The notes under the pieces were generated by a model. The model was not told the DNA's origin. It saw only the letters and a program-made list of their open reading frames with translations, and ran no database searches. A program made the translations under genes and the position numbers. DNA of 64,000 bases from Escherichia coli (GTDB taxonomy: Bacteria > Pseudomonadota > Gammaproteobacteria > Enterobacterales > Enterobacteriaceae). The DNA is taken from the NCBI RefSeq assembly GCF_003334785.1, contig NZ_QOWV01000019.1. One strand, given 5' to 3'. Below are positions 905 to 2,234 of this stretch, piece after piece. Position 1 is the stretch's first letter, and each line of letters opens with the position of its first letter.

Positions 905-1183
905 ATGGCACGCAACGCAAAATATTACAATTCTGATAATTCGCCCGTTCTTGCCTGCACGCACGGGCGGTATTCTCACGCATTCAAGTCTGAATGGTTC
1001 CAGCACCCTCCATGCACTGCAGAACAGGCCGAATGGCTGATTCATTCTTACCGCAGGCGCGGGTTCGAGGTTAAGAAAGCTCTCAGTCTCGACTATCGGC
1101 ACTGGATAATCTCTGTCAGGCTGCCTTATTCCGAACGCCCACCACGTGCGTCCCGCACTTTCCAGCAACGGATCTGGAGGTAA
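905..1183 (+). CDS. Hypothetical prophage protein, 92 aa, stop immediately upstream of ydfU start
   Basis: ORF track 905..1183; GGAG 7 nt upstream of ATG; stop at 1181-1183 sits two nt before the ydfU GTG and overlaps its RBS. Confidence 0.4.
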   Translation: MARNAKYYNSDNSPVLACTHGRYSHAFKSEWFQHPPCTAEQAEWLIHSYRRRGFEVKKALSLDYRHWIISVRLPYSERPPRASRTFQQRIWR

Positions 1184-1184
1184 C

Positions 1185-2234
1185 GTGCGGGTATTACTTA
1201 GACCTGTTCTGGTGCCTGAGCTTGGGCTGGTGGTCCTTAAGCCGGGCCGTGAATCCATACAGATATTTCATAATCCTCGAGTGCTGGTGGAACCGGAACC
1301 AAAAAGCATGCGTAATCTGCCATCCGGAGTCGTTCCTGCCGTTCGCCAGCCGCTGGCGGAAGACAAAACATTGCTGCCGTTTTTTAGTAACGAACGGGTG
1401 ATTCGTGCTGCTGGCGGCGTTGGCGCATTGTCCGACTGGCTATTACGTCATGTTACATCCTGCCAGTGGCCTAATGGCGATTACCATCACACTGAAACAG
1501 TCATTCACCGTTATGGTACCGGCGCAATGGTGTTGTGCTGGCACTGCGACAACCAACTGCGTGACCAGACATCGGAATCACTGGAGCTGCTTGCTCAACA
1601 AAATCTGACAGCATGGGTGATTGACGTCATCCGTCACGCAATAAGCGGTACGCAGGAGCGGGAATTATCTTTGGCTGAATTATCCTGGTGGGCGGTCTGC
1701 AATCAGGTGGTGGATGCACTACCTGAGGCTGTATCGCGTCGTTCGCTGGGATTACCAGCGGAAAAAATCTGCTCGGTGTACCGCGAAAGCGACATCGTAC
1801 CGGGAGAGCAGACCGCCACCAGCATATTGAAACAACGCACAAAAAATCTTGCACCGTTGCCTTACGCCCACCAGCAACAAAAATCACCACAGGAAAAGAC
1901 GGTGGTAAGCATCACCGTTGATCCAGAGTCTCCGGAATCTTTCATGAAGCTGCCTAAACGTCGCCGCTGGGTTAAGGAGAAATACACACGTTGGGTTAAG
2001 ACACAGCCGTGTGCTTGCTGCGGTATGCCAGCCGACGATCCGCATCATCTGATTGGTCACGGGCAGGGCGGAATGGGAACAAAAGCACATGATCTCTTTG
2101 TGTTGCCTTTGTGCAGAAAGCATCACAACGAGCTGCATACGGATACAGTGGCATTTGAAGATAAGTATGGCTCCCAACTGGAGCTGATATTTCGTTTTAT
2201 CGATCGCGCGCTGGCAATTGGCGTACTGGCGTAA
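1185..2234 (+). CDS. ydfU: Prophage protein YdfU (DUF968-like; C-terminal Cys/His cluster resembling an HNH motif), 349 aa
   Basis: ORF track frame 1146..2234; start reassigned to GTG at 1185 preceded by GGAGG; C-terminus CACCGMPADDPHHLIGHG...CRKHHNELH. Confidence 0.7.
   Translation: MRVLLRPVLVPELGLVVLKPGRESIQIFHNPRVLVEPEPKSMRNLPSGVVPAVRQPLAEDKTLLPFFSNERVIRAAGGVGALSDWLLRHVTSCQWPNGDYHHTETVIHRYGTGAMVLCWHCDNQLRDQTSESLELLAQQNLTAWVIDVIRHAISGTQERELSLAELSWWAVCNQVVDALPEAVSRRSLGLPAEKICSVYRESDIVPGEQTATSILKQRTKNLAPLPYAHQQQKSPQEKTVVSITVDPESPESFMKLPKRRRWVKEKYTRWVKTQPCACCGMPADDPHHLIGHGQGGMGTKAHDLFVLPLCRKHHNELHTDTVAFEDKYGSQLELIFRFIDRALAIGVLA

Follow-up and report, generated by a model that had tools for sequence, protein, structure and literature searches.

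A short open reading frame (ORF) of 92 amino acids (aa) lies directly upstream of ydfU in the cryptic lambdoid prophage Qin of Escherichia coli, and this arrangement raises the question of whether the two genes encode the parts of one dedicated nuclease system or are simply neighbours. Here the question was addressed in a 64,000-nucleotide (nt) stretch of contig NZ_QOWV01000019.1 (RefSeq assembly GCF_003334785.1), referred to below as the window, in which the locus is the nin-type (delayed-early) region of Qin. A preliminary description of the same DNA had proposed a probably coupled pair, made up of a small partner and an HNH-type protein, that could be a nin-region nuclease module or the remnant of a packaging or defence function. 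The explanation that we favour, and hold to be probable without regarding it as secure, is that these are two consecutive nin-type genes of Qin, ydfU encoding an HNH nuclease and the other being a genuine small gene whose product is not a dedicated subunit of it. The two genes are:

small gene, 905..1183, plus strand: 92 aa, ATG at 905 and TAA at 1181-1183, PHROG 1212, called as WP_012304870.1 by the NCBI Prokaryotic Genome Annotation Pipeline (PGAP)
ydfU, 1185..2234, plus strand: 349 aa, DUF968, GTG start, in frame with a longer mechanical ORF from 1146

The small open reading frame is a conserved gene

The small ORF begins 7 nt downstream of a Shine-Dalgarno (SD) sequence, GGAG at 894-897, and the ORF with a ribosome-binding site (RBS) just ahead of the ydfU GTG was borne out as described. 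Its product falls into two parts that differ in conservation:

N-terminal extension, codons 1-26, 905..982, plus strand: found in E. coli Qin-type alleles only, predicted disordered, weakly constrained
conserved core, codons 27-92, 983..1180, plus strand: strand-helix-strand-strand, then a basic C-terminal tail ending in Trp-Arg

In codons 27-92, the ratio of non-synonymous to synonymous substitution rates (dN/dS) was 0.07-0.13 in comparisons with 19 of the 24 other intact IMG/VR alleles, the remaining five showing zero synonymous differences from the window over the same codons. The first 26 codons differed in diverged alleles by 2-8 non-synonymous and 0-1 synonymous changes, and the extension is missing from the 66-aa relatives of the protein. 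Residues 27-92 aligned with positions 1-66 of 66 of PHROG 1212 (E = 1.7e-35), and relatives sharing 26-47% identity were present in phages of Salmonella, Klebsiella, Yersinia, Edwardsiella, Erwinia and Pantoea. A profile search against 1.84 billion representatives recovered only 118 clusters (50% identity), mostly of about 66 aa and from enterobacterial phages and prophages. The predicted model of the small protein showed a confident beta-alpha-beta-beta core, with predicted local distance difference test (pLDDT) values mostly >90 at residues 31-70 and <50 at most residues of the N-terminal extension, and the median isoelectric point of the family was 9.6. Since the core dN/dS is about 0.1, PHROG 1212 is matched and relatives extend down to 26% identity, sequence comparison identifies the small ORF as a real gene under purifying selection.

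Searches for a known function gave no lead. No Pfam family (E ≤ 0.001) was matched by any of 57 family members and no NCBIfam family by the window protein and ten further members; the small-protein profile run against the PDB, together with a search of AFDB, returned no functional relative; hhalign gave probabilities of at most 0.7% with each of lambda NinD, NinE, NinF and NinH; and the PADLOC defence models matched neither the small protein nor Rem. The Pfam comparison suggested in the preliminary description thus assigned a family to YdfU (DUF968) and none to the small protein. In the curated MG1655 record NC_000913.3, the interval 1644305-1644650 (complement) is empty, leaving a 346-bp gap with no gene between rem and ydfU; PGAP calls the ORF as WP_012304870.1 in other K-12 records, and NC_000913.3 is without it.

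Three candidate identities were set aside. The small ORF is not ynfO, which sits elsewhere in Qin, beside ydfO. Repeats matched in the large proteins P0199 and P0203 share only a common 'T.EQA..L...Y' helix with it and were rejected as a source of functional information. The GenBank label 'toxin to Rem' carried by the homologue in vB_EcoS-689R5 (L003 3001-3279) found no support in the literature searched, in PADLOC or in NCBIfam.

YdfU carries a His-Me-finger domain of the DUF968/YbcO group

The RefSeq annotation of both AST198 and K-12 has the same ydfU coding sequence (CDS), 1185-2234, as used here. Pfam DUF968 (PF06147) matched residues 160-346 over positions 1-171 of the 171-position model (E = 2.5e-76), and YdfU over its full length belongs to PHROG 96, 'HNH endonuclease' (E = 2.8e-171). 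Weak Pfam matches were obtained to HNHc_6 (1.3e-5) and, below significance, to RecA_dep_nuc (PF16786; 0.02); NinG (PF05766) was not matched in the Pfam scan, the shared His-Me core alone aligning. NCBIfam and a PDB sequence search gave no informative match, and the best structural match of YdfU was Ref. The following elements were delimited:

His-Me-finger (HNH) domain, 1947..2231, plus strand: residues 255-349, with C276-x2-C279, H287-H288, D303, C310-x2-H313-H314 and H318
His288 codon, 2046..2048, plus strand: the sole invariant residue in an alignment of DUF968, YbcO, NinG and PHROG 5034
N-terminal folded domain, 1347..1754, plus strand: approximately residues 55-190, helical, with a beta-hairpin-helix at 105-125 and pLDDT mostly 85-92

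The Cys/His string at residues 276-318 reads CACCGMPADDPHHLIGHG...CRKHHNELH. In YdfU homologues, C276 and C310 of the putative zinc site are invariant and C279 and H314 at least 90% conserved; among 22 of them, H287 and H288 likewise reach a conservation of at least 90%. An AlphaFold2 model built with the 22 homologues (mean pLDDT 74.7) placed a strand-strand-helix, the expected beta-beta-alpha order, at residues 285-319. Both fold and family assign the C-terminus of YdfU to the His-Me-finger (HNH) domains of the DUF968/YbcO group, presumably stabilised by zinc, and the HNH resemblance first noted from its Cys and His residues was confirmed. By analogy with HNH enzymes, His288 is presumed to act as the general base. 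The HNH nature of YdfU is already known: Jablonska et al. 2017 placed the 'Prophage-derived proteins YbcO, YdfU' in group 7 of the His-Me superfamily, listed RusA and Q as neighbours and proposed a role in recombination and repair (PMC5714182), and Curtis et al. 2014 described DUF968 HNH domains fused to recombination proteins.

The N-terminal domain has invariant residues of its own (C93, Q94, C118, D122 and N123). A second Cys/His cluster lies at window 1461-1562 (residues 93-126), where C93 and C118-W-H-C121-D-N, including H120, fall on the predicted hairpin-helix; in the model it resembles another zinc or beta-beta-alpha element. A duplicate of the C-terminal HNH domain was considered for it and rejected, as hhalign gave a probability of 0.2% and the sequences lent no support.

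Two irregular forms were seen among the homologues. In Salmonella phage ST64B (L094 1483-2437) two overlapping CDS, sb47 'HNH endonuclease' and sb48 'DUF968', make up the YdfU homologue, the split being probably due to a frameshift or a sequencing error. Six predicted proteins of 584-607 aa (P0240-P0242, P0276, P0284 and P0288) join YdfU to Q and carry PF27659, a family that is not in the Pfam version scanned.

The small gene precedes several nuclease families

The gene 3' of the small gene was read in 20 lineages, these being phage records or separate 50% clusters, with the following outcome:

DUF968 directly downstream: 3/20 lineages
YbcO (Pfam E = 2.8e-42) directly downstream: 3/20 lineages
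NinG directly downstream: 2/20 lineages
PHROG 5034, 'NinG/Rap' short form, directly downstream: 3/20 lineages
RusA directly downstream: 2/20 lineages
another gene downstream, with NinG two to three genes further: 3/20 lineages
DEDD exonuclease directly downstream: 2/20 lineages
single-stranded DNA-binding protein (SSB) directly downstream: 1/20 lineages
unassigned gene directly downstream: 1/20 lineages

A His-Me nuclease of one of four families directly followed the small gene in 11 lineages, and four more had NinG or DUF968 one to three genes past the direct neighbour; a junction nuclease, RusA included, directly followed it in 13. In Chris1, one of the two RusA lineages, DUF968 comes next after RusA, and a Dcm methylase gene is also among those preceded by the small gene. 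The next gene in 79 close mEp237-type relatives was NinG (60), YbcO (18) or another (1), and DUF968 came directly after the small gene in 73 of 80 Qin-type loci, the other seven being cut short or incomplete. The small gene was present in 59 phage records and YdfU relatives in 200; a different gene stands upstream of the YdfU homologue in the 58%-identity E. coli type, ST64B, YeP2, Vibrio phages and P1.

The small gene travels with the nuclease slot, not with YdfU. A dedicated YdfU subunit or immunity protein is unlikely because RusA, which has a fold with no relation to HNH, is also among the followers of the small gene, and the idea of a small partner specific to YdfU did not hold up against the absence of the small gene beside most YdfU homologues and its presence before NinG, YbcO, RusA, exonuclease and SSB genes.

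Two AFDB entries from Citrobacter and Klebsiella, A0A2X2YPE4 and A0A939NUB8 (166 and 177 aa), are apparent fusions of the small domain with YbcO. Such entries could equally be explained by an indel or a sequencing error at the G-rich junction, and an indel at the junction G-run was seen in the IMG/VR locus L035.

The junction with ydfU has the geometry of a coupled pair

A single base, C1184, separates the TAA of the small ORF (1181-1183) from the ydfU GTG at 1185. Two elements were located around this point:

ydfU SD sequence GGAGG, 1176..1180, plus strand: within the last two sense codons (UGG AGG) of the small gene
hairpin over the ydfU start, 1152..1191, plus strand: 1152-1165 pairs with 1174-1180 (SD) and with 1185-1191 (GTG and following bases)

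The stop codon of the small ORF sits in the spacer between the ydfU SD and start. The overlap of stop codon and RBS given in the preliminary description was therefore a little imprecise, as it is the last sense codons that carry the RBS. With the ydfU start a few nt from the stop and its SD within the upstream ORF, the arrangement is that expected of a coupled pair, and the same junction (UGG-(A/G)GG-stop, 1-3 nt, start) recurs in most abutting relatives, whichever gene comes next. The small gene would thus supply, in its final two codons, the RBS for whichever gene follows, and, because the SD lies there and the stop 1-3 nt from the start, ribosomes finishing the small ORF would be well placed to start ydfU, a geometry that suits termination-reinitiation. 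Judged from this stop, SD and start geometry, translational coupling of the small ORF and ydfU is plausible. It is not special to this pair, since end-to-end genes are normal in these operons: in the annotation tables of the loci read, nearly every pair of neighbouring genes either abuts or shares 1-4 nt, and the lambda nin genes are described as 'interlinked' in a chain by a cited reference.

The hairpin over the ydfU start was rejected as proof of coupling, as it was no more occluding than controls (12th percentile of occlusion among 50 ORF starts of the window, with 31% of flank shuffles equally occluded) and no compensatory changes were seen in 1152-1191 among 11 junction variants. A -1 frameshift at the mEp237-type G-run, which would fuse the small protein to the nuclease, was likewise considered (about half of the loci read GGGGTTGA) and rejected, as the window junction AGG-TAA-C-GTG is without a slippery site and L052 simply has a mutated stop.

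A conserved start hairpin in a candidate zone of Rho-dependent termination

A second hairpin was found over the start of the small ORF:

RNA hairpin over the small-ORF start, 885..912, plus strand: outer stem 885-891/906-912, inner stem 893-895/902-904

The outer stem buries the UG of the AUG, and the SD GGAG (894-897) falls partly in the inner stem and partly in the loop. The fold had a z score of -1.9 and was kept in six diverged alleles, where 95% of cells were paired compared with 17-40% in slid controls, these figures coming from six sequences only. Three pairs were altered on both sides, with C-G to U-A and U-A to C-G replacements and U-G intermediates.

Published data bear on the same region. 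In rho mutants, ydfU was up approximately 4-7-fold (log2 1.4 to 2.8) and rem was not (PMC9160355 supplement), and a very strong Rho-dependent terminator has been described upstream of ydfU (PMC9160355); because the rho mutants de-repress ydfU and not rem, a strong Rho-dependent terminator is placed between these two genes. Across 800-1200 C exceeds G, unlike in the flanks, and a cited reference on lambda reports Rho-dependent terminators in the nin region. The start region of the small ORF may belong to such a nin-type Rho terminator zone, a role that is compatible with a functional small protein, as both can coexist.

Setting of the pair in the Qin prophage

Bases 560-2700 of the window shared 100% identity with E. 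coli AST198 and 99.9-100% with K-12 strains, a 306-bp difference in the Q gene aside. The annotated order is relB, relE, hokD, rem, 'hypothetical protein', ydfU, Q antiterminator gene, cspF and cspB, and the commonest order over 80 IMG/VR loci was hokD, rem, small gene, DUF968, (RusA) and Q. The annotation and these loci thus upheld that the pair belongs to a nin-type region and stands immediately ahead of Q. The neighbouring genes are:

hokD, 215..370, plus strand: ORF and RefSeq annotation, conserved left neighbour of the block
rem, 587..838, plus strand: ORF and RefSeq annotation, PHROG 340, function not assigned
Q antiterminator gene, 2248..2694, plus strand: 148 aa here compared with 250 aa in K-12 ydfT, in-frame internal deletion

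The deletion in Q removes about 102 codons relative to K-12 ydfT and falls between two similar ...SG(T/K)G(F/Y)... stretches. Because of this in-frame loss, Q in the source strain is, as predicted from its sequence, probably inactive. A 137-aa antisense ORF (window 845-1258, minus strand) spans the entire small gene and probably just reflects the C-richness of the coding strand.

In the intact lambdoid phages read, a ydfU homologue immediately precedes Q and frequently has RusA as a neighbour. The slot directly upstream of Q is occupied by NinG/Rap in lambda and by YbcO, RusA or YdfU with RusA in the other phages read. No terminase adjoins ydfU or its homologues, the gene lying between rem and Q and ahead of the lysis genes.

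Discussion

Under the favoured explanation of two consecutive nin-type genes, YdfU would most likely be a non-essential endonuclease, with DNA intermediates of recombination or replication as its substrates, because its position before Q matches the NinG/Rap slot and it carries an HNH domain. The PHROG 1212 family would travel with a 'junction-nuclease slot' of enterobacterial temperate phages, and the small protein would probably take part in the same DNA transaction as the nuclease. Several points weigh against this explanation. Rho stops transcription between rem and ydfU in K-12 lysogens (PMC9160355), so that the small gene and ydfU are largely silent there, and the source strain's own Q has an internal deletion. 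The recombination role is argued from gene position and from the parallel with NinG and Ref; the literature searched shows no assay of any DUF968 protein, and P1 PdcB, a homologue at 26% identity, is described in the literature as non-essential and without an established function. Upstream of most YdfU homologues the small gene is missing, and adjacency is no independent sign of a shared function, since lambdoid nin gene order is conserved and shuffled as modules.

In an alternative explanation, that of synteny only, the task of the small gene is an unrelated one, such as acting on a host protein, and the gene owes its position to a fixed and tightly packed nin gene order. We regard it as doubtful, though deserving serious attention: nearly all neighbouring genes in the loci read abut or overlap by 1-4 nt, as befits the 'chain of interlinked genes' of lambda (so called in the accessible portion of the cited reference), the small gene also stands before genes for a Dcm methylase, DEDD exonucleases, SSB and unassigned products, and the ydfU start hairpin is unexceptional. 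It sits less well with a junction nuclease immediately downstream in 13/20 lineages, from five unrelated or distantly related families and despite many module exchanges, or with the two AFDB entries that apparently fuse the small domain with YbcO. Those apparent fusions (166 and 177 aa; Citrobacter and Klebsiella), the conserved junction and the single base between stop and start, with the SD within the small ORF, could instead be taken as signs of an obligate two-protein unit, in which the small protein would serve YdfU as a subunit or specificity factor or else inhibit it as an immunity protein, coupling keeping the two in fixed ratio. Such a unit is improbable, however, with the small gene in 59 phage records compared with 200 for YdfU relatives, other genes upstream in several types and the same small family preceding RusA (of a different fold), exonuclease and SSB genes; the apparent fusions could be indel or sequencing errors.

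A mainly regulatory explanation would make 840-1200 a Rho-dependent terminator gating read-through to ydfU and Q, with the hairpin limiting translation so that Rho loads. It accounts for the rise of ydfU but not rem in rho mutants (PMC9160355), the excess of C over G across 800-1200 compared with the flanks, the compensatory changes that keep the AUG-burying hairpin paired and the Rho-dependent terminators reported for the lambda nin region. The strong purifying selection on the core and protein conservation down to approximately 26% identity indicate, however, that the product matters; the protein and terminator roles can coexist, and the terminator is placed only between rem and ydfU, so that this explanation taken by itself is quite unlikely. 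HNH domains occur in packaging and in defence settings. A remnant of a packaging HNH protein (terminase helper) or of an anti-phage defence system, as first suggested, is nevertheless barely credible here, as no PADLOC family was matched (the best match of YdfU being PglZ at E = 0.078), the gene is located between rem and Q, ahead of the lysis genes, with no terminase alongside, and homologues hold the position before Q in intact phages.

A more ambitious proposal, which is speculative and on present judgement unlikely, is that PHROG 1212 is an accessory factor of junction nucleases (NinG/Rap, YbcO, YdfU and RusA). One possibility is that the small protein recruits the nuclease to branched DNA or to a recombination protein of the host. 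The start hairpin would gate expression of the small protein and, through coupling, of the nuclease, and, together with Rho termination, would also control read-through towards Q.

The pair is a real but ordinary prophage gene pair and largely known, the HNH nature of YdfU and its likely role in recombination already being in the literature and family databases. What is gained is a conserved, selected gene within the unannotated 346-bp rem-ydfU gap of the K-12 MG1655 reference, from a family without a Pfam or NCBIfam model that is positioned ahead of several junction-nuclease families. PHROG 1212 is therefore a concrete candidate to consider alongside Rap, YbcO and YdfU, whose in vivo roles are poorly defined. 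In addition, a start hairpin supported by covariation coincides with the zone of reported strong Rho-dependent termination, and may be part of the silencing of cryptic-prophage nin genes.

Comparison with known systems

Within its own group, YdfU differs from YbcO (DUF1364, PDB 3g27; group 7, PMC5714182) in size, YbcO having 96 aa and being without the large N-terminal domain of YdfU. The DUF968/YbcO group has no member with demonstrated activity, and the nuclease function given here is a predicted one. P1 PdcB is a full-length homologue of YdfU (26% identity over 91% of YdfU), and pdcB (L099 1405-2448) lies directly before the gene for the late activator Lpa, as ydfU does before Q; several motif positions differ, such as CQSCQ for CRKHH, and pdcB is preceded by pdcA, not by a PHROG 1212 gene.

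The other P1 protein of interest, Ref, has 186 aa. It is a RecA-dependent HNH nuclease (PDB 3plw) with a disordered N-terminus, the solved chain 3plw_A comprising 109 residues, and the match of YdfU to its Pfam family, RecA_dep_nuc, was not significant.

The branch-specific endonuclease NinG/Rap of lambda occupies the same nin slot as YdfU, shares the same invariant His in its His-Me finger and is found directly 3' of the same small-protein family in Gifsy-2, GF-2 and 60 IMG/VR loci. It differs from YdfU in domain architecture and length, with no Pfam NinG match in YdfU, and in lambda its upstream gene codes for NinF, a protein with no relation to the small one. YdfU may act in the manner of Rap, yet it is no member of the NinG/Rap family. 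Members of PHROG 1212 such as Gifsy-2 STM1021.1n, mEp237_051 and PY54 ORF47 share the WF..H..T..QA..L...Y...G motif and the terminal W with the small protein of Qin, and differ from it in being without the 26-residue N-terminal extension that the Qin-type alleles carry.

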